A program made the translations under genes and the position numbers. A stretch of DNA of 64,000 nt from a virus, in IMG/VR virus record IMGVR_UViG_3300016674_000106; one strand, 5' to 3'. Below the pieces are notes generated by a model. The model ran no database searches and was not told the origin of the DNA. It saw nothing but the letters and a program-made list of their open reading frames with translations. Position 1 is the stretch's first letter, and every line of letters begins with the position of its first letter. Positions 1,488-52,393 of the stretch are shown piece by piece.

Positions 1488-1506
1488 AGACTGTCCTTTT
1501 TAATAT

Positions 1507-1535
1507 ATTATAAACAAGAATTTTTCTAATGTCAA
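1507..1535 (-). promoter_or_regulatory. Consensus sigma70 promoter for the gp55-like gene
   Basis: Minus strand TTGACA (1535-1530), 17 nt, TATAAT (1512-1507); AAAAGGA SD before the ATG at 1487. Confidence 0.75.
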
Positions 1536-1560
1536 CCATTATCTGCATACAAAATATGCA

Positions 1561-1568
1561 GATAAATA
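1561..1568 (+). promoter_or_regulatory. Late promoter-like GATAAATA
   Basis: Variant of the T4 late TATAAATA box, 18 nt upstream of the first structural gene. Confidence 0.6.
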
Positions 1569-1585
1569 TTGTATAAGGATAAGGT

Positions 1586-2794
1586 ATGGCAACACAGGAC
1601 GAATTACTACAAACGATTACTGCATCGAAAGCAAAAATAGCAGAGTTAGAGGACACTGTTCAAAAGCAGATCGAGGACAGATCTGACTTAAATCAGGAAT
1701 ACTCTGCTATAAAAAATAGAATGTACGATGTTAATCAATTACTAAAGACCGCTAGCGTTACGAGTTCTGAGTATTATTCGTTAACGAATGAAATGTATTC
1801 ATTGATTAGCAGAGAATCTTCAGTTGGAACTAAACTTACCTCTGCAAGGGCCGCAACAACTGCTCTTCAAAATACTATTGACGAAGAACAAAAACTACTA
1901 GAACGAGCTGAGCGCTCATTAGCCGGGTTAGCACAAGAGTCCACTGTTAAGACTACTGAATCGACAAATGTGTCGTTGTCGGATGCAGAAACTACAGAAA
2001 AATACGCAACAAGTGGTGTTGTTTCGAACACTACTGATAATGATGGTTCGACTGGCACTGTAGGCGCCGAGCCGGGTACAATGAGCGTTAAGGCGTTCCT
2101 TAATGTGTCGAAGGCTTTTGAGACCAAGTCTTTCCGCAACACTCCTAGTACCGAGTCAAAAAAAATTACCCCAGCATATCCTACAGTGAACGAAAAAGTA
2201 GATCGAAGAGTTAGAATCAAGGTACCGAGTTCTTATCTCGTTGGACAAGCAGCAGGTCCGAACAATGAGTTAACTATAAACGGCGGAATAGTGTTTCCAT
2301 ATACGCCTGACATTAAAATAGAAAATTCTGCAAGTTACAGTGCTGTCAATGTAACCCATTCTAATTACACTCAATATTTTTATAAGAATAGCTCCGTTGG
2401 CGAGATTGTAATTACTGGAAAGTTTACAGTGCAAAACGAGACCGAAGCAGGGATATTTTTAGCAACTGTCCATTTGTTAAGAGCATTGACTAAAATGAAA
2501 TTTAGTGACGATCAGAACGCCGGCGCCCCGCCGCCTGTTTGCAGACTTTTTGCATACGGAAATTACGTATACGATAATACACCGGTGGCAGTTAAACAAG
2601 TATCAATCCAGTTACCGCAAGATGTAGATTATATAGATGCAGGCAAGGTTGCGAAGTTCTATGGAAACTCAATGGCCCCGACGGTATCAACAATTACAGT
2701 AGCTTTAATACCGATATATAGTAGAAAAGAAATGCTCGAAGCATCGGTTACCGGTTGGCTAACAAAAGATCAAAGATCAAAAGGCTTTATTTAA
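1586..2794 (+). CDS. Baseplate tail-tube initiator/cap (gp48/gp54-like) with N-terminal coiled coil
   Basis: C-terminal half G.VFPYTP.I...THSNY...I.ITG.FTVQN...PPPVCRL.AYG...P.AV..VSI.LP.DVDYI is typical of tube-fold baseplate proteins; first gene of the baseplate cluster. Confidence 0.6.
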   Translation: MATQDELLQTITASKAKIAELEDTVQKQIEDRSDLNQEYSAIKNRMYDVNQLLKTASVTSSEYYSLTNEMYSLISRESSVGTKLTSARAATTALQNTIDEEQKLLERAERSLAGLAQESTVKTTESTNVSLSDAETTEKYATSGVVSNTTDNDGSTGTVGAEPGTMSVKAFLNVSKAFETKSFRNTPSTESKKITPAYPTVNEKVDRRVRIKVPSSYLVGQAAGPNNELTINGGIVFPYTPDIKIENSASYSAVNVTHSNYTQYFYKNSSVGEIVITGKFTVQNETEAGIFLATVHLLRALTKMKFSDDQNAGAPPPVCRLFAYGNYVYDNTPVAVKQVSIQLPQDVDYIDAGKVAKFYGNSMAPTVSTITVALIPIYSRKEMLEASVTGWLTKDQRSKGFI

Positions 2795-3093
2795 TGACTA
2801 CATACTCGAAGCTAAGTCCGTATTATCATACTCCGTTAAATGGATCGTATCTTGATATCTTATCATTGAGAAATCTTACCGGAGAAACCGATGATGTAAG
2901 ATACGAAATAACAAGCCAATACGAATATAGGCCAGATTTGTTAGCATACGACTTGTATGGCGATTCGAATCTTTGGTGGGTGTTTGCTGTAAGGAACAAG
3001 GATGTCATTAAAGATCCAATTTACGATTTTTATGCAGGACAGGTAATTTATCTTTTAAAGTTGTCTTATCTAAAAACCACATTAGGTATCTAA
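2794..3093 (+). CDS. gp53-like baseplate wedge protein (LysM-like)
   Basis: YEYRPDLLAYDLYGDSNLWWVFA.RN motif; start moved to the ATG at 2794, which overlaps the upstream TAA (TAATG). Confidence 0.75.
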   Translation: MTTYSKLSPYYHTPLNGSYLDILSLRNLTGETDDVRYEITSQYEYRPDLLAYDLYGDSNLWWVFAVRNKDVIKDPIYDFYAGQVIYLLKLSYLKTTLGI

Positions 3094-3095
3094 TA

Positions 3096-6000
3096 ATGGC
3101 CGATATTGAAAGCAAAACGTCAAAAAAATCAGATCAAATAAGTTATAAAATCGTAAAGGCAAATAAAAGAAACACGCTCGATTCCTATCGGTCTTATACC
3201 TACTTGTTTACTCTCGCGTCTCTTAAAAAAGATTCGTTAAAGAATCCTATTAGTTATCGAGAGCAACAAGATTATTTTGTCATTGCAAAGTCTGCCGGAA
3301 AAGGCACTCAGGGTATGAGTGTGTCGAACGTTGTATCAACTAATAAAGATTCGGTCGACTTTGTGACTAGTTTTAACAAGAACAGCCCTGGCAGATTTGA
3401 TTTTTATCTTGACAACGTATCAATAGATACGATTATGGGATTCGACAATCGAACGAGCCTTAGCGTGGCCACGAATATTAAATTCGACATTGTTGAACCG
3501 TATAGCATGTCTGGATTTATTGAGGCATTACAGGCAGCAGCAGTGGCCGCAGGTTACGAAACTTACGCTACTACGCCTTTCCTTCTGAAGGTTGAGTTTA
3601 TAGGGTATCCAGACGATGCCCGACTCCCGGACCCGGTGATTGTTCCGAATGCAACTAGATACTTTGTATTTGCGTTTACAGGGCTTGAAGTAACCGTAAA
3701 TGAATCAGGTGCAAGATACACATGCAGCGGAGTTCCGTTTAATGAGAGAGGATTCGGCGAACCGTCCTTACTAAAGTCAAACGTGCAAATTCACGGAACC
3801 ACAGTGCAAGAGATTTTGAAATCACTTGAAAGCGAAATTAATAATTCGATACAAACCGATAAAGAATCTGAAAAAAAGTCTTCTGAGCAAAAAACAGGAA
3901 GAGATATTTACGAAATTGTAATACCAAAAGTCACAGAAACCGGGTTCGATGTATCTGATATTAATAAAGATATTGCAGATAAAAAACTTCTTGAGGTGTT
4001 GAAAGACAGAGCAGTTTATAAATTTGCAAAACCAAGCGACGATAAAGAAAAAACTGTAAAATACGACCCAACGACACCAGTAGTATCTTTTGCAGAGCGT
4101 GCAAACATTCACGAATGTATTATTGCTATAATTCGAGATAGTGAATACACAAGGGATATTCTCAAAAATTATCCTAAGTGTGTCGACGACTACGGTTATG
4201 TAGATTATTTTATTGTTAATTTAGAAGTAGAAGAACTACCAGAGTTTGATAAAACTAGGAATAAGCCGTTTTACAAATATAGATATATTGTTCTCCCGTA
4301 TAAAATTCATTATACTCGAATCCCTTTGGCACAAAGCGATGCAGTCGATGTGACAAAATTAATTTCAGTGTTAAGTAGAGAATACGAATATCTGTATACC
4401 GGAAAAAATGTCGATATTAAACGGCTAGAATTAAAGTTTAACACTCTCTATTTCCAGGCAATTCCTCACAAACTTGGTAATAAAGAAGATAATCCTTCAC
4501 AGGTAGACGGAATTAAACCAGCAGACACTACTCTTCTAAGAGCAAGTGATCAAACTGGTGCAGGCGATAAAGCAGAAAATCGATCGCAGGTGCGAACAGA
4601 TATTCGCCAATCGCAAATCCATGTCGGTAACTCTTTAAATGCGATTCCTCCGCAGGTAGACCCGTACGCTACTATGGCAAAGAACTTGCATCAGGCAATT
4701 CTCGATAATGTCGATCAGTGCCAAGTTGAGATGGAAATACTCGGAGATCCTTTTTATCTAGTAACAGCCGGCATAGGTAATTATAGACCTCCTAACAACT
4801 CAGATAATACAGTAGGATCGGGCGAAGCACCATATCTAAATAAAGATGTTATTATTTCAATAAAATTTAGAAATCCAGTAGACATAGATCCTGTTACAGG
4901 CGAAGCAATTTTTAACGATGCGTTGTCGATTTATAGTGGCGTGTTTAGAGTGATTACAGTATTGAACGTGTTTAAGGACGGGGTGTTCTCTCAGACATTA
5001 AAAACAATTAGAATACCGGCACAACTGCCGAGAGATCTAGCAACACCTGTTGCGTCAAAGACAGCATTAGTTGATACTGATGTTGATCCTACAAACCTTA
5101 CAACACCTATACCTGCAGAGATTGCAAACCCAACTCGTAAATTAACTAGCGCGTTGTTATCTGACATTCTAACAACTGCTATCCCAACAGCTAGTTTACC
5201 TGGAGAATTATCGAACTTCGTAAGCAACGCAAGCAACGCGTTTTCAAGCGGAATTACATCGGTAACTGGTCAAATTAACAATGTTGTTCAGTCTGCCACT
5301 AGCGCCGCCGGCGCACTCAACGACTTAACAGGAGTTAGCTCAGCAGTTCGGTTGGCACAGTCAGGTTTATCGGCAGTATCAACGAATATTAATTCAGCTG
5401 GCGCAACTATTAATCAAATTACAAACACAGCACAAAAATTAGGTATTTCTGGCACAGATAAGATAGCATCAGAGGTATTAAAAGCGACAGACTTATCTAA
5501 TAAAATAACAACCGCTGTAGAAACTAATTTAACATCGTTAACAGCAAAAGCAGATCAGTTAAGTTCGTCTGCAATGTCGGCGATCGGTAATTTAGAAAAA
5601 AATGCCGCCGGGTTAGTATCAAACGTGCAGTCAAAGATAGATGCATTAAAAGGCGCACAAGATGCAATTTCATCGCAGCTAGGTGTCGAATTATCAAAGA
5701 TTGCGGGTCTAACGGGCGATTTAAAAACAAAACTTACAGATACTATTGCTAAAGCTGCTGAACAAGTTCCAACTAGTGTCGATTTAAATACAGCGATAAA
5801 AGACGGACTTCTTGTGAACAACATTCCGTTAAAGTCATTGGCAAATATACCTTCGACGTTTCCAACACTCACTGCTCCGGATGTTCAGTTACCGGATGTT
5901 TCGTCGACACTAGATAAGATATCTAGTTCCCCTCTTGGCAAACTAGCAACTACGCTAGGAGCAGATACAACAGCCTTAGCAGGAAAAGTAACATCGATGC

Positions 6001-45513: not shown

Positions 45514-46040
45514 TTAATGATAGTATCCTTTCCGTACTTCTTCCAGTCTGTAAAAACTTTTCGATCCATTAAATCGTGTACATTGTGCACCCAAACTCCA
45601 GGATTAGTCCTATTAAAATCAATGTCATCGATCTTAATACACGCATTGTAGTTTAAATGCTTTATGTAAGGTATTTTAACACTAATTTGTGGAATAAACA
45701 AGTTGCTTTCTAACAAATGAGATTCTTGAAGTCCTTCTACCTCGGAAAGATCTAAGTCCAACGTGCACCAATATTTTTGGTCGATGCACGGTGTAATCAT
45801 TTTTTCCCACATAGACCAAGTGTCGTAGTCATCTGCTCCGTGCGTTTTAAAGCTCTGATTTGCACCGAAATAAATGTGTTCTACATTCCAGTCCTTGGCT
45901 AACTGTAAAATAGTTTCAGCATCGTGAACACCAGATACGAAAAGCGTCTTCATACCATATGCAGGCGTGTGCTCGATTTCGTCTCCTACGAAATACTGAA
46001 CATCTGCGTCAGATGTTCCTGTGTCGTAATCTCGTTTCAT
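45510..46040 (-). CDS. Hypothetical protein inside the deazaguanine island
   Basis: 176 aa, coupled at both ends (ATGA overlaps) to the TGT-like and T-fold genes. Confidence 0.65.
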   Translation of the reverse strand: MKRDYDTGTSDADVQYFVGDEIEHTPAYGMKTLFVSGVHDAETILQLAKDWNVEHIYFGANQSFKTHGADDYDTWSMWEKMITPCIDQKYWCTLDLDLSEVEGLQESHLLESNLFIPQISVKIPYIKHLNYNACIKIDDIDFNRTNPGVWVHNVHDLMDRKVFTDWKKYGKDTIIK

Positions 46041-47683
46041 TCTTTGACTCCTTCTTCAAGTGACCGCAGTGCATCGTCATCTGGGTCTTCGATATTAACT
46101 TCGTCAACTGACGTAACATCTTCGATATCAAACAGCGATGTAAACGTGTTTTGTGCGTTTCCGCCTCTAAGGCGAGCACCATCAAGACTACGTAAAAACG
46201 GCGATGCTTGCTCGATCATTGCAAATGCATCTTCTTTAGTGGTAGTCTCAAACAGCTCTTCCACGAACCGATCAAAATACAGAATATTACGAGGAACCCA
46301 ATCGCTATATTCGTCGCTGCCGGCTTGTTTAGCATTTAGCTTTCTCCAGTGACGCCAATCAGGCCGACCGTTAGGCTTTGCACGCTCAATGTCGACTAAG
46401 TTGTTTGCTCGTTGAACGGCCACGATGTGACAATAAACATTGTGCGCCATCATTAGTGCATATGCAAAACTATCCCAGCTTGTTCTTCCGATTTTGTTGA
46501 TCTTGTTCATCTTAGGAACAACCGTGTAATGCTCAGGATTTTCCGGATCAAACTTAATCTGTTTACCCGAGTCATCGACACCTAGTTCCGTATCAGTCTT
46601 TCGAACACCGGTATCATAGTAGCAAATGTCCCCTAGGGTCAATCGTCGGCCGATTTCGCTTTCGAATGGGAATGGGATGTCGCTTCCGGACAAGAGTTTG
46701 TTGTCTGGGGCTTTGTCCATAATAACGCTCCAACGCTTTGAAGTGTGTTGCGCGTTGGTGTAGACGAGGCCGTGCGCAGTTGCGATAAACGGTGAGGCGC
46801 AATCAAAAGATATGGTAAAGTTTTCATTAATGTGCTTTCTAATTTGACGTTGAATACTTGTTAAGTAACAGCTCCAGTCGAGTTGTGCAGTTCCTAGGAA
46901 GTGCATCCAATCTTTGCCTTTAAGTAGCCCATCTTCACGAAGAGTGATTAGTCGCTTTAGTGTAACGTCCATCTTACACATATTTGCGCCTCCCATTGCC
47001 CACCCTTCTGCGGCCTTATCGCCCCACACTGCAGGGTCGCTAAAGTCTTTTACCCCTTGATACCATTTTTCTGCAGTATCCCAGTCGCTACCTTGAAGAA
47101 CATTTAAGAACTTAGTTTGACCGAGACGATTTTTTAGAAAATATTCGTTGTTAAATCGAGTCTTGTCTAAGCAATCATCAAACGTTTTTAGACCAGTTTT
47201 TGGACTATGAATGTGATCGCACGCCCATGTAGGAACGTCGAGCATCATGGACCAATCTGCGGTTAATTCGAGCCATTCTAAAATCTGCTGACGAGTTTTG
47301 TTAGCTTCCGGACCTTCAAAGTTGAGCCAATCAAACTTTAGAACTCCTTTACCGATCTGATATCCACCAGAGTCGCCGAGGATCATTGTGTTTTCTCGAT
47401 CGCGCTGTTGAATCATCGATTCTTGGGTTAAGCTCTTGTTTAAGTCTAATTGTGCATGCCCTGCAGAATATAGACCGTACTTGTATGTAAAGTATCCTTC
47501 CTCGGCGTTTAAGAAATTCATGCCTTCGATGCCTCTATCAAAATCTGCAGGAATCCGATCTAAAGGCACAAATTCTTCTAATCGTTGTTTCGAAATATAA
47601 GTCCCGTAAAACGAACTAATGGCCGGAAGATACACAGCATAGTCTCGTTGTCCTGGGGTCAAGTTAACTGGTGGTTTTTTCAT
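46037..47683 (-). CDS. TGT-fold (DpdA-like) 7-deazaguanine transglycosylase
   Basis: TGT motifs in order: ILGDSGGYQ, MLDVP, VLQG, GWAMGG, HFLG, SFDCASP, HN. Confidence 0.8.
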   Translation of the reverse strand: MKKPPVNLTPGQRDYAVYLPAISSFYGTYISKQRLEEFVPLDRIPADFDRGIEGMNFLNAEEGYFTYKYGLYSAGHAQLDLNKSLTQESMIQQRDRENTMILGDSGGYQIGKGVLKFDWLNFEGPEANKTRQQILEWLELTADWSMMLDVPTWACDHIHSPKTGLKTFDDCLDKTRFNNEYFLKNRLGQTKFLNVLQGSDWDTAEKWYQGVKDFSDPAVWGDKAAEGWAMGGANMCKMDVTLKRLITLREDGLLKGKDWMHFLGTAQLDWSCYLTSIQRQIRKHINENFTISFDCASPFIATAHGLVYTNAQHTSKRWSVIMDKAPDNKLLSGSDIPFPFESEIGRRLTLGDICYYDTGVRKTDTELGVDDSGKQIKFDPENPEHYTVVPKMNKINKIGRTSWDSFAYALMMAHNVYCHIVAVQRANNLVDIERAKPNGRPDWRHWRKLNAKQAGSDEYSDWVPRNILYFDRFVEELFETTTKEDAFAMIEQASPFLRSLDGARLRGGNAQNTFTSLFDIEDVTSVDEVNIEDPDDDALRSLEEGVKE

Positions 47684-48709: not shown

Positions 48710-51379
48710 TTAATCAAAACTGAAAAGATTGTTGAACGTGTTGTCTTCGGTTGTAGACATCAGATCCCAGTCAAGGACTCCGATTAGGTTCTCAAGTTTA
48801 TTGTTGATAATTACGGACTCCATTTCGCTGTGGTCGAACGGTAATTCTTGAAACCACTTAGGCAATCGAAGTTCGTCGACGGGGTATGCAACTGACGTAA
48901 ACCCGATAGGGTTTTCTTTTAGCTTGCATACGATTACTTTCATGCCGTCAACAATCGGTTGGCTATACTTGTCCCCGTTCATGCGTCGCAGCGTGTTCCA
49001 ATTAATGCTTGCGCGCACATGTCCTGGCATAGTCGTTTTGCCATTCTTTTCTTCTTTAGCTTGGTACTCAGTAATGTTATTGGCCCGCTTCGGAGAACCT
49101 TTTTCCCAACCCGGCCTGGCCTTGAATAAAGTTCGAAATTCTTTAATCATTTCGAGGACTTCGGTCTCGCCGGCACCGTGTAGGACTTTATTTAGAACAT
49201 CGCTTAAGAAGTTCTGCATATATTCAGGCGTATCGCTGCGCTTTAGATCGAGCCCCATTGCCTTAATCTTTCCGTCTTTACCATTAACATCTTGACGCTT
49301 CCCGTCTTTGTCGTAATAAAGTACAGCATACCGTTTTTTGGTAATAAACAAGCCTTTAGAAGCTACGATTTCTCGCCCTGCTTTGATAACGGATCCGCGA
49401 CTCTTTGGACAATGAAATTTGTCTAACATCATCTGAGGGAAAGTGCTATTCACTTCTTCAGAGATGTTATCGTACAGATGGATTACAGTATCTTTATCCC
49501 ATTGAATAAGCCCTTTACTGATGTCATTCTTTAAGATAGGATACGCACTGAAATATGCAGAGTCAGTGTCACCGTAAATAATACTTTTACCCACATGATC
49601 GTACTCTCCGGTTATAAGTTCATTAACCTTTGCGGCCATATGCTTAGCAACTTGCCGGCCAGTGAGAGTTGTTGATTGTCCGATTCTGTTATCAAAGAAT
49701 CTGCATCCCGCGTTAAGAATTGCACCGTATAGCGAGTTTAGGTTAATCTTTTTAACTAGCTGTCGTTTGTCCCAGTACTCTTCTTCGATTGCATTTCCGG
49801 CTTCGATTGCTGCCTTTAACTTAGCCTGCATTTCTTTACGCTCTGAATACCATCGCTTTAGCAGACCAGGTATAATTCCTTCTTTTTCGTATGTAAAGAT
49901 TGTACCGTTGGCACTAATGGTCCATGGCTGGTTACTCTCGAATAACATTTCATAAATCTGAGCGCCCGACATTACGTCAGTTTGACCATTCTCCCAGTCA
50001 ATGATGATATCGTGAGTGCGATCCTTTGCCATTACAAACTCGTATTCGTTAGAACCGAATTTGCCTTCCCATGCTCCTGCAAAACTTGACCCTTTGGCCA
50101 TTTTTGCTTCGATTTCGGCCTTTGTGTATTCGGGTCTGAGCTGCCCGACAATGGTTTCTGGCCCCATGTTCAACGCGCGAATCGCAGAAGGATACAGAGA
50201 GTTAATGTCCATTGATCCGATCCAGTCGTGCAGCCCTTTCTTTGGATATGCAACATATGCACCCGCGGCCTGCGTATCTCCTTGTTCGCCTTTTCGTTGA
50301 CGACTTGGAACAATTAAACCGTGACTATGAGCTTCGTTAATAATAGCCTGCTCTGTAACGGCAACAGCTCCCATAATAGTCGGAAGAAGAACAGTGTTCT
50401 CGTGGGCAAGTGTGTTTGCAAGATCTAAGAACTTCAGCTTCTTATCTAGTCGATCCAACAGTGCTGTATCTTGCCGGTTGTATTCGATGAACTTTTTAAA
50501 ATCTCGATTGTAAAGCTGATCCAGCGTGCCTTCGTATTGAGTCTTTCTTTCACCGAGCTCGTAAAATGCAATAGCATCTAACGAATAACTATGCCGTTCT
50601 TCGTATGTGTATTTTCGATACAGTTCTAAGCTGTCCATGTGCACACGACCAACAAAGTCGTATGTAATTGCCGTTTTTCCGTACTTTTCGTACTCTCTCT
50701 TTTTCGGAAGCTGATTCCACAGGCAAAACCGCCGAGTATCATCTTTACTTAGAGTTTTTGTAACGCGATTAACAGTATACGGGATATCGAAACCTTCGCT
50801 GTTCCAGCCGCTTAATACATCAGCATCTTCGATAAGAGTTAAAAATGTATCTAACATCTCATACTCTGTTTCGAACAGGATAGTGTTAGGGAACTCTTTA
50901 ATTTCTTCTTGGGCCTGCTCCATTGTGAGCGTTTTTGGCGGAACTGCTAGACACACTAGAGTATCTAGCCATTGCATATGCACCGCAATCGAAGTAATCG
51001 GCATAAACGCATCCTCCGGCGATGCGTATCCGCGCTCTGGGTCAAAGTCAACTTCGATATCGAAAAACGCCACATTTAGTTTAGGCGCTTCTTTTCCAAG
51101 GTAACACTCTTCGAGCGCTCGGAACACCGGATTAATATCGCTTTCGAAGAGTTTTTTGCCAGAATGAATTCGTTGCTCTTTTGCGAACTCTTTCCAGCTT
51201 CGGCAACTAACCTTTGTAAGATTGTCGCCAAAAATGCTTTTATATTTTCCTTTCGGATCCGGATAATAGAACATATACCTTGCAGGTATATCTTGGTATA
51301 CGCGTTTTTGATCGGTGTTTCTTTCTACAACCCGTATAATATCGTCATCTCTTAACCAAATTGCATCTACGTAACTCAT
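48710..51379 (-). CDS. Family B DNA polymerase (gp43-like)
   Basis: Exonuclease FFDIEVD, GWNS..FDIPY, YN..D; polymerase DINSLYPS, K...NSLYG, YGDTDS, KKRY. Confidence 0.97.
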   Translation of the reverse strand: MSYVDAIWLRDDDIIRVVERNTDQKRVYQDIPARYMFYYPDPKGKYKSIFGDNLTKVSCRSWKEFAKEQRIHSGKKLFESDINPVFRALEECYLGKEAPKLNVAFFDIEVDFDPERGYASPEDAFMPITSIAVHMQWLDTLVCLAVPPKTLTMEQAQEEIKEFPNTILFETEYEMLDTFLTLIEDADVLSGWNSEGFDIPYTVNRVTKTLSKDDTRRFCLWNQLPKKREYEKYGKTAITYDFVGRVHMDSLELYRKYTYEERHSYSLDAIAFYELGERKTQYEGTLDQLYNRDFKKFIEYNRQDTALLDRLDKKLKFLDLANTLAHENTVLLPTIMGAVAVTEQAIINEAHSHGLIVPSRQRKGEQGDTQAAGAYVAYPKKGLHDWIGSMDINSLYPSAIRALNMGPETIVGQLRPEYTKAEIEAKMAKGSSFAGAWEGKFGSNEYEFVMAKDRTHDIIIDWENGQTDVMSGAQIYEMLFESNQPWTISANGTIFTYEKEGIIPGLLKRWYSERKEMQAKLKAAIEAGNAIEEEYWDKRQLVKKINLNSLYGAILNAGCRFFDNRIGQSTTLTGRQVAKHMAAKVNELITGEYDHVGKSIIYGDTDSAYFSAYPILKNDISKGLIQWDKDTVIHLYDNISEEVNSTFPQMMLDKFHCPKSRGSVIKAGREIVASKGLFITKKRYAVLYYDKDGKRQDVNGKDGKIKAMGLDLKRSDTPEYMQNFLSDVLNKVLHGAGETEVLEMIKEFRTLFKARPGWEKGSPKRANNITEYQAKEEKNGKTTMPGHVRASINWNTLRRMNGDKYSQPIVDGMKVIVCKLKENPIGFTSVAYPVDELRLPKWFQELPFDHSEMESVIINNKLENLIGVLDWDLMSTTEDNTFNNLFSFD

Positions 51380-51391
51380 TAAAGCCTTTCT

Positions 51392-51439
51392 GGTAATTTA
51401 TGGCTTACCTACCATCAAAAGTGTTGTTTATGGCCAACA
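51392..51439 (-). promoter_or_regulatory. Tandem hairpins with identical 8-nt loop in the polymerase leader (putative translational operator)
   Basis: mRNA: UGUUG-GCCAUAAA-CAACA and GGUAA-GCCAUAAA-UUACC directly before the AGAAAGG SD. Confidence 0.6.
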
Positions 51440-51444
51440 GAACC

Positions 51445-51741
51445 TTAAGCAAGAATTAGTCTAACTAACCCAACGCAATCGATAATAAACAAAATTGAAT
51501 AATTTGCTAGAAGACCGGTACTACCTCTTGTAAAAGCAGCCCACATCCATATAAGGCATCCAAACATCCATAGTGGATAGATGGTAAGAAGGGGCGGTGC
51601 GGGCACTGTTATCGCCATTGTTAGTGCGCAACCGATTGACAGTGCCCATGCAAACACTTCGGCAACAAATCTTACTGGATTAGCTCGATAATCTCTAGCC
51701 ATCCAGTTTATTACACCTCTTAATTTATAATGTAAACTCAC
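51445..51741 (-). CDS. Small membrane protein
   Basis: 98 aa, about three hydrophobic segments. Confidence 0.6.
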   Translation of the reverse strand: MSLHYKLRGVINWMARDYRANPVRFVAEVFAWALSIGCALTMAITVPAPPLLTIYPLWMFGCLIWMWAAFTRGSTGLLANYSILFIIDCVGLVRLILA

Positions 51742-52010
51742 TCGTCGTCCTTACGGTTAGCGTGGCCGCTGATATCAACAATTGTTTCGAGATCATCGAA
51801 TTCTCTAAACACTTGATCCCATCTGTCTTTCAACGCAATCTTAATAGCTCGTTTAATCACAGACGGTTTAACGTCTAGTTCTTCAGCAACTGCCTTGATA
51901 GTATCGTTAAGCCCTGCGTTTAGATCTTCAATTTCTTGCATTACCGTCACGCCTTCGGCGATAATTTGCTTGATTTTTGCCTGTTCAGGGGCACCATATG
52001 CTTTGCTCAT
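51738..52010 (-). CDS. T4 DsbA/GapR-like dsDNA-binding protein
   Basis: I..I..G...M.EI..L...L.D..K..AEEL.V....I.RAIKI pattern. Confidence 0.65.
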   Translation of the reverse strand: MSKAYGAPEQAKIKQIIAEGVTVMQEIEDLNAGLNDTIKAVAEELDVKPSVIKRAIKIALKDRWDQVFREFDDLETIVDISGHANRKDDE

Positions 52011-52031
52011 ACATATTCTCCTTAGTAATTT

Positions 52032-52061
52032 ATTGTATACAGATTAGATAGCAAGAGTCAA
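52032..52061 (-). promoter_or_regulatory. sigma70-type promoter
   Basis: TTGACT (52061-52056), 18 nt, TACAAT (52037-52032). Confidence 0.5.
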
Positions 52062-52090
52062 TATTTAATATACCGACTCATGCTGAGTGA

Positions 52091-52393
52091 TTATTTTCTT
52101 TTGAGGGCTTCGGCTAATACAGAGCCGAGATACGATAGGTAGGATTCGTTTTGTTTTTGTTTGCGTAATACTGGTTGATCGTGCAGGCTATGCCCGCCTT
52201 CCATTATTGCCATGTCTAAGGTAGAAAAACGGCGAGAGGCCTCGCCGAATTCGTTTTTCTTATGCTTTACTTCGCCGTTCTTTTGAGATTTCTTTTTGTC
52301 TTTATGTGCGCCAGCGCCGGATGTCTGTGCATTTTTAACAACAAAATTTCTCGGTTTCGATGGTGGTAGTGTTTTAGGTGTGTTTTTAGCCAT
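52091..52393 (-). CDS. Lys-rich hypothetical protein
   Basis: 100-aa basic ORF in the late cluster. Confidence 0.55.
   Translation of the reverse strand: MAKNTPKTLPPSKPRNFVVKNAQTSGAGAHKDKKKSQKNGEVKHKKNEFGEASRRFSTLDMAIMEGGHSLHDQPVLRKQKQNESYLSYLGSVLAEALKRK

Follow-up and report, generated by a model that had tools for sequence, protein, structure and literature searches.

A conserved tandem of predicted mini-pseudoknots in the polB leader of uncultured jumbo phages, a candidate translational operator

What is the role of two hairpins with the same loop that stand directly before the start codon of a phage DNA polymerase gene? The question is raised by a 64,000-nucleotide (nt) stretch of DNA (the window) from IMG/VR virus record IMGVR_UViG_3300016674_000106, in which polB, the gene of a gp43-type family B DNA polymerase, is preceded by a short leader that contains both hairpins. 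A preliminary description, based on the letters of the window, had likened this leader to the operator through which gp43 of bacteriophage T4 represses its own translation and had proposed either a duplicated operator with a different loop sequence or a two-site RNA element. Here we find that the leader carries a tandem of covariation-supported RNA elements that is conserved among relatives, confined to polB and held at a fixed distance from the Shine-Dalgarno (SD) sequence. We consider a translational operator its most probable function.

Two hairpins before polB

Read on the minus strand, on which all features named below lie, positions 51444-51380 give GGUUC-UGUUG-GCCAUAAA-CAACA-CUUUUGAU-GGUA-GGUAA-GCCAUAAA-UUACC-AGAAAGG-CUUUA, followed by the AUG of polB at 51379-51377. 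The spacer between polB and an upstream open reading frame (ORF) of 98 amino acids (aa) is thus 65 nt long, and the UAA stop of the ORF occupies 51447-51445. Hairpin 1 (51422..51439) is composed of the stem strands UGUUG (51439-51435) and CAACA (51426-51422) and the loop GCCAUAAA (51434-51427), and is supported by covariation, by RNAalifold and by the covariance model R1 (see below). Hairpin 2 (51392..51409), supported by covariation and by R1, has the stem strands GGUAA (51409-51405) and UUACC (51396-51392) and again the loop GCCAUAAA (51404-51397). It is followed by the ribosome-binding region (51380..51391), which consists of AGAAAGG with an SD-like AAGG and the spacer CUUUA. Our reading of the strand agrees with the two 5-bp stems, identical loops, 65-nt spacer, SD and AUG that had been described for this locus.

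Taken alone, the single sequence of the window makes a weak case. The local fold of 91 nt is no more stable than shuffled versions (z = 0.04, calculated for this single sequence), and GCCATAAA occurs four times in the window, compared with 2.6 expected occurrences.

A close polymerase is encoded on at least 598 contigs in IMG/VR, of which we fetched 80 (77-82% aa identity). All of the fetched leaders contain two hairpins in matching places, with stems that differ and loops that are nearly constant. We aligned 68 leaders, counted pairs over the 67 distinct ones and compared the counts with 500 column shuffles and with controls in which the partner was slid by 1-3 columns. In this alignment 95.5% of the stem cells are paired, as opposed to 76% in the column shuffles and 22-46% with a slid partner, and none of the 500 shuffles matches the observed pairing values. 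Changes on both sides are found in all 10 stem pairs, five in each hairpin, and RNAalifold predicts both hairpins unprompted. The paired positions include 88 G.U cells and five A.C cells; since the former are common and the latter rare, it is the sense-strand RNA that folds. The covariation that had been suggested as a check on the polB leaders of related phages is therefore present: both hairpins are kept, the loops hardly change and the stems are compensated, as expected for a two-site RNA element next to the SD.

Pooling of all loci yields 175 distinct polB leaders, of which 155 parse as strict tandems; altogether, more than 170 distinct leaders from contigs of uncultured jumbo phages retain the two hairpins. 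The loop consensus in these 155 leaders is GCC-N-N-A-A-N (GCCNNAAN), with A6 and A7 invariant. One further unpaired base, A4, is conserved in unit 1 only, and three loop positions of unit 2 are free to vary.

The position of the element relative to the translation start is equally constrained. Hairpin 2 is separated from a GGAG-type SD by 0-5 nt in 153 of the 155 leaders, which places unit 2 inside the footprint of the 30S subunit, and its distance to the AUG is 9-18 nt. The stem-to-stem distance between the two units is 9-12 nt in all 155. In the window the units are joined by the 8-nt linker CUUUUGAU (51414..51421), which is variable in sequence and constrained in length in the relatives. 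A pairing of UUCUG with CAGAA over the SD had also been considered possible. This pairing is not conserved (52.5% of cells paired, 52.3% in shuffles), and with UUCUG/CAGAA as the pairing tested in the leader alignment we find no alternative pairing that is conserved and would hide the SD.

In one relative (locus L047, IMGVR_UViG_3300006100_001303, positions 2800-3003) the tandem is intact and lies approximately 120 nt further upstream of polB. A Cys-rich ORF of about 40 codons is inserted after the element, and its stop overlaps the polB start (tgaATG), so that polB is probably translated by coupling behind the element. The tandem thus retains its position at a ribosome-binding site, here that of the inserted ORF.

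About half of the relatives carry a TAAATA box 17 nt upstream of the first GGU, which often supplies the stop of the upstream ORF. The box may represent a late-type promoter that places the element at the 5' end of the transcript; the window is without TAAATA.

Pairing of the loops with upstream triplets

The first triplet of the leader, GGU (51442..51444), is located directly 3' of the UAA of the upstream ORF and is complementary to the first three loop bases of hairpin 1 (GCC, 51434-51432). In the alignment of 68 leaders this three-base helix (S1) is 97% paired; AGU precedes the hairpin in three leaders whose loop begins with GCU, and GGU is retained in a leader with an ACC loop, which agrees with a pairing of 5'-GGU-3' with the loop bases 5'-GCC-3'. 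Over the 155 strict tandems, the 5' triplet and the loop triplet of unit 1 occur as GGU/GCC (117 leaders), GGC/GCC (20), AGU/GCU (17) and GGU/ACC (1), with no mismatched combination among them.

The GCU state was followed up by a scan in which only a GCU loop, the loop of unit 2 and the start of polB were specified and the upstream triplet was left unconstrained. Looser GCU-loop patterns were swamped by chance matches, whereas this tighter pattern, which includes the polB start, worked: AGU is found upstream in 17 of 17 distinct leaders. On a tree built from 151 polymerases, 10 changes are required to account for the GCU state, and well-supported branches force at least seven of these. In all seven independent contrasts the upstream base has switched as well (sign test p = 0.016), and counted over all branches there are 10 coupled switches. 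The use of FastTree support values and a possible recombination of leaders limit this result.

In unit 2, the GGU at 51411..51413 is complementary to the loop GCC and is the proposed 5' strand of S1. A triplet that can pair with the loop GCC lies 0-4 nt before the stem in 155 of 155 leaders, as GGU/GCC in 154 and GGC/GCC in one. Because both sides are nearly invariant, covariation is not observed here; the GGU of unit 2 is consistent with pseudoknot pairing and neither adds to nor subtracts from the evidence.

The pairing of loop bases with a strand outside the hairpin, which covariation supports in unit 1, assigns the predicted fold to the H-type pseudoknot class. With the upstream GGU paired to the loop GCC, each unit is a predicted H-type mini-pseudoknot of approximately 29 nt, laid out as GGU, 0-4 nt, a 5-bp stem, the 8-nt loop GCC-N-N-A-A-N and the 3' stem strand. 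In the predicted topology, S1 comprises 3 bp and the second stem (S2) 5 bp, and of the connecting loops L1 measures about 2 nt, L2 is missing and L3 is the 5-nt segment NNAAN. The invariant bases A6 and A7 probably dock in the minor groove of S1. The two 8-nt loops of the preliminary description thus stand in their dimensions but not as free loops, since their first three bases pair with the upstream GGU.

Distribution, origin and gene neighbourhood

We built two covariance models, R1 for one unit and R2 for the tandem. Within the 64-kb window, R1 finds hairpin 2 with 29.0 bits (E = 1.1e-5) and hairpin 1 with 28.6 bits (E = 1.5e-5); the next-best match after these two polB units scores 10.8 bits (E = 1.5). 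The same holds for five large relatives, including genomes that are 99% (353 kb) and 93% (331 kb) complete, where the two polB units are the only significant matches. A pattern scan that was blind to genes leads to the same gene, with 15 of 15 model-confirmed matches directly before polB, among them polymerases that are only 50-54% identical at the N-terminus. In each genome the element is thus found at polB alone, as would suit an autoregulatory operator.

A cmscan of positions 50900-52100 against Rfam 15 (E <= 10) gives no match at the locus, including to PreQ1, preQ1-II/III, SAM-II, ykkC-III and mini-ykkC. Likewise, blastn of the leader region against the phage collection gives no match, and the nearest virus record (G001), a fragment of 14.7 kb, does not contain the region. 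None of the cultured relatives examined (Phosso, Vibrio 2.275.O, 121Q, Atu_ph07, SCTP-2 and T4) has the element upstream of polB. A scan of genome contigs for hints to the host returned chance matches only, none of which encodes the polymerase. A literature search gave no account of this motif.

A deeper clade, with an L519-like polymerase, has a single unit composed of GGU-RUU, a 6-bp stem, GCCNNAAR, the 3' stem strand, 2 nt and GGAG. Its stem again covaries, and the unit resembles unit 2. The tandem is hence most simply explained as a duplication, in line with the duplicated element of the preliminary description.

The single-unit version (L632, L643, L650, L691 and others; 20 distinct leaders) is found directly behind a TTGACA-17-TATAAT promoter. 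This consensus sigma-70-type arrangement suggests early transcription of polB by the host RNA polymerase in the deeper clade. Sister lineages (L661-L686, e.g. L664, L667, L670 and L678) have TTGACA-17-TATAAT approximately 50-20 nt before polB and no unit with a GCC loop. They have an inverted repeat around TATAAT, the arms of which change in step (e.g. aatgct-GTATAAT-agcatt), and about 3 nt separate the end of the repeat from a GAGGA SD. The repeat may be either a promoter operator or a further hairpin of the polB leader, with AUAA in its loop.

The gene behind the leader, polB (48710..51379), encodes a protein of 889 aa that matches Pfam DNA_pol_B and DNA_pol_B_exo1 and phrog_262 (E = 8e-202). 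The product is 26% identical to T4 gp43 over the full length, and its top relatives of solved structure are the gp43 proteins of RB69 and T4. The source phage is uncultured; the best match in an isolate is to Sinorhizobium jumbo phage Phosso (51% aa identity), and polymerase identity to Rak2/121Q-like jumbo phages is approximately 43%. In Agrobacterium phage Atu_ph07 (L096) the polymerase is annotated as two adjacent coding sequences (1501-3198 and 3217-4470 of the locus), corresponding to a split or interrupted polB.

The upstream 98-aa ORF (o98; 51445..51741), whose stop abuts unit 1, is present in 162 related loci; among 94 leaders in which its position was measured, the distance from its end to the start of polB is 69-95 nt in 85. 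It is hydrophobic, has no Pfam or PHROG family match and looks like a membrane protein. With these properties, we consider it unlikely as an RNA-binding factor. It is preceded by the gene of a 90-aa protein (o90; 51738-52010) that matches phrog_639 ('transcriptional regulator') and, weakly, Spo0A_C. The o90 protein is 80% conserved in 238 loci and is always upstream of polB, with or without the RNA element.

A sigma-70-like promoter, TTGACT-18-TACAAT (52032..52061), lies before the o90 gene; it was identified solely by a scan for the consensus, with 10 of 12 positions matching. In the source phage, an o90-o98-polB transcript probably starts here. No terminator-like site is found between this promoter and polB. 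A transcription attenuator is unlikely, as the leader has neither a U-tract nor a terminator-like site.

Approximately 1 kb downstream of polB and on the same strand, the window contains a DpdA/TGT-like gene (46037-47683), an arrangement found in 143 fetched loci. DpdA adjoins polB in distant lineages both with and without the RNA element, and polB and the deazaguanine genes therefore form a conserved neighbourhood. For the same reason, a link of the element to the 7-deazaguanine system is unsupported.

Function of the element

We favour the view, with a probability of roughly 0.45, that the element is a translational operator, most simply an autogenous one that acts via the gp43-type polymerase. 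By binding the folded units, a protein would keep the 30S subunit from the polB start or trap it there. Of the candidate proteins, the gp43-type polymerase itself when off DNA, as in T4, RB69 and RB49, would be the most parsimonious. With two sites, the duplicated element would respond more steeply and cooperatively. Protein binding, the identity of the protein and the direction of regulation are inferred.

The precedent consists of T4-like hairpin dimensions, a Y-A-A-R loop and a full-length gp43 homologue. The operators of T4, RB69 and RB49 likewise stand in a polymerase-gene leader, occur once per genome and contain, just 5' of the SD, a hairpin whose stem has 5 bp and whose loop has 8 nt. 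Both elements thus have the hairpin dimensions that the preliminary description had compared, with a different loop sequence: the T4 hairpin reads AGCCU-AAUAACUC-GGGCU and is unrelated in sequence. A Y-A-A-N loop motif appears as UAAC in T4, as UAAA in the RB49 leader and as UAAA in the window, where the loops follow the Y-A-A-R form. The loop motifs UAAC (T4 and RB69), CAAC (obtained by systematic evolution of ligands by exponential enrichment) and UAAA (RB49) are important for gp43 binding (PMC3014915).

The two systems nevertheless differ in that the leader described here has two units instead of one, folds into a predicted pseudoknot and places its hairpin 0-5 nt from the SD rather than 7 nt as in T4. 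The shared hairpin top and UAAC core of T4-type operators are not found, and only a YAA(A/C) tetranucleotide is common to this element and the T4 and RB49 leaders. The element may be a functional counterpart of the T4 gp43 operator; it is not a member of that family by homology.

A number of observations weigh against an autogenous operator. Since T4 gp43 acts as a monomer on a single hairpin, two sites would not be needed by analogy. Model R1 finds no match at the T4 leader, and the element shares no homology with the operators of T4, RB69 and RB49. Sister lineages with similar polymerases, including other lineages of the deeper clade, are without the element. All of the conserved bases (GGU, GCC and AA) can be accounted for by the tertiary structure of the RNA alone. 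Nothing in the remaining conservation requires a protein, and three loop positions of unit 2 vary freely. Finally, some T4-related gp43 proteins do not autoregulate, and according to a review there is no evidence of pseudoknot formation in the T4 operator (PMC3014915).

That the fold itself accounts for all conserved bases is also what one would expect of a cis element that functions as RNA without any ligand. Such an element could protect the transcript from 5'-end-dependent decay, insulate the ribosome-binding site from the upstream cistron or serve as a 30S standby site or enhancer. In favour of such an element, the TAAATA box that precedes the first GGU by 17 nt in roughly half of the relatives may put the units at the very 5' end of a transcript, and in the window unit 1 directly adjoins the stop of the upstream ORF. 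However, polB alone carries the element among several hundred genes, and neither the 0-5 nt coupling to the SD nor the fixed inter-unit spacing is needed for a 5' stabiliser. Furthermore, in the window the element lies inside what is probably a polycistronic transcript. We therefore regard an RNA-only role as somewhat unlikely, while giving it real weight.

The arguments from structure and SD adjacency apply equally to an operator for another trans-acting protein. This could be a host protein or a dedicated RNA-binding protein of the phage that represses or activates, and a dimer could use the two units as half-sites. Near-identical units at a fixed spacing of 9-12 nt represent a classic layout for a dimeric binder. 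ThrRS, for example, binds two anticodon-like hairpins of the thrS mRNA as a dimer, and in thrS and MS2-type coat-protein operators recognition of the hairpin by the protein blocks 30S binding. These operators share with the polB leader the position of hairpins at or by the ribosome-binding site and, in thrS, the presence of two look-alike hairpins, but their sequences and proteins are unrelated, making them mechanistic analogues only. Since there is one target per genome of 330-350 kb, a dedicated single-gene factor is less parsimonious than autoregulation. In addition, the conserved neighbours do not track the element (o90 is also found in motif-less lineages, and o98 is membrane-like), and the single unit of the deeper clade requires no dimer. 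A different protein partner is accordingly a distinctly unlikely explanation.

Among phage replication genes, T4 gene 32 is known to have a small H-type pseudoknot in its mRNA leader, where it takes part in autogenous translational control by nucleating the cooperative binding of the single-stranded DNA-binding protein along unstructured RNA. The gene and the sequence are different, however, and the gene 32 pseudoknot is located far upstream of the ribosome-binding site, whereas here two pseudoknots abut the SD.

The element could alternatively be a tandem mini-riboswitch of a new class, with about 29 nt per unit, that senses a nucleotide-pool or DNA-modification metabolite and tunes polB translation in a large, uncultured clade of jumbo phages. 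Candidate ligands would be a nucleotide, a deoxynucleoside triphosphate or, given the deazaguanine DNA-modification genes downstream, a 7-deazaguanine precursor. In size (~30 nt), H-type fold, A-rich third loop and proximity to the SD the units resemble preQ1-I, SAM-II and guanidine-III, the tandem arrangement recalls guanidine-II, and a DpdA-type deazaguanine cluster is situated about 1 kb from polB. In contrast to the small riboswitches, the helix lengths are reversed relative to preQ1-I and the SD lies outside the fold, and the loops are 8 nt long with the consensus given above instead of the two ACGR tetraloops of guanidine-II. The Rfam search returned no family, and no conserved alternative pairing hides the SD. 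The idea is weakened mainly because DpdA adjoins polB regardless of the element and because few conserved unpaired bases (A6, A7 and, in unit 1, A4) are available for a pocket. We thus consider a riboswitch improbable; if a small molecule were nevertheless the partner, the units would be among the smallest riboswitches known.

A function at the level of DNA, as a cruciform, single-strand origin or palindromic protein-binding site, would be in keeping with inverted repeats that occur once per genome next to replication genes but is highly improbable, since the stems change freely with complementarity kept, the excess of G.U over A.C cells fits sense-strand folding only, the three-base pseudoknot pairing covaries and the element keeps its place relative to the SD and AUG.

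The element is present in hundreds of uncultured jumbo-phage contigs, is absent from Rfam and was previously undescribed. It provides a marker for the polB start in the clade of the source phage and, at approximately 29 nt per unit and with natural compensatory variants at hand, a new RNA motif for structural work. It also offers a test of how general RNA recognition by gp43-type polymerases is. To our knowledge, autogenous translational control of a replicative DNA polymerase has so far been documented only for T4-like phages, where it operates via one unrelated hairpin. The tandem of covariation-supported mini-pseudoknots before polB appears to solve the task independently and with a richer structure.
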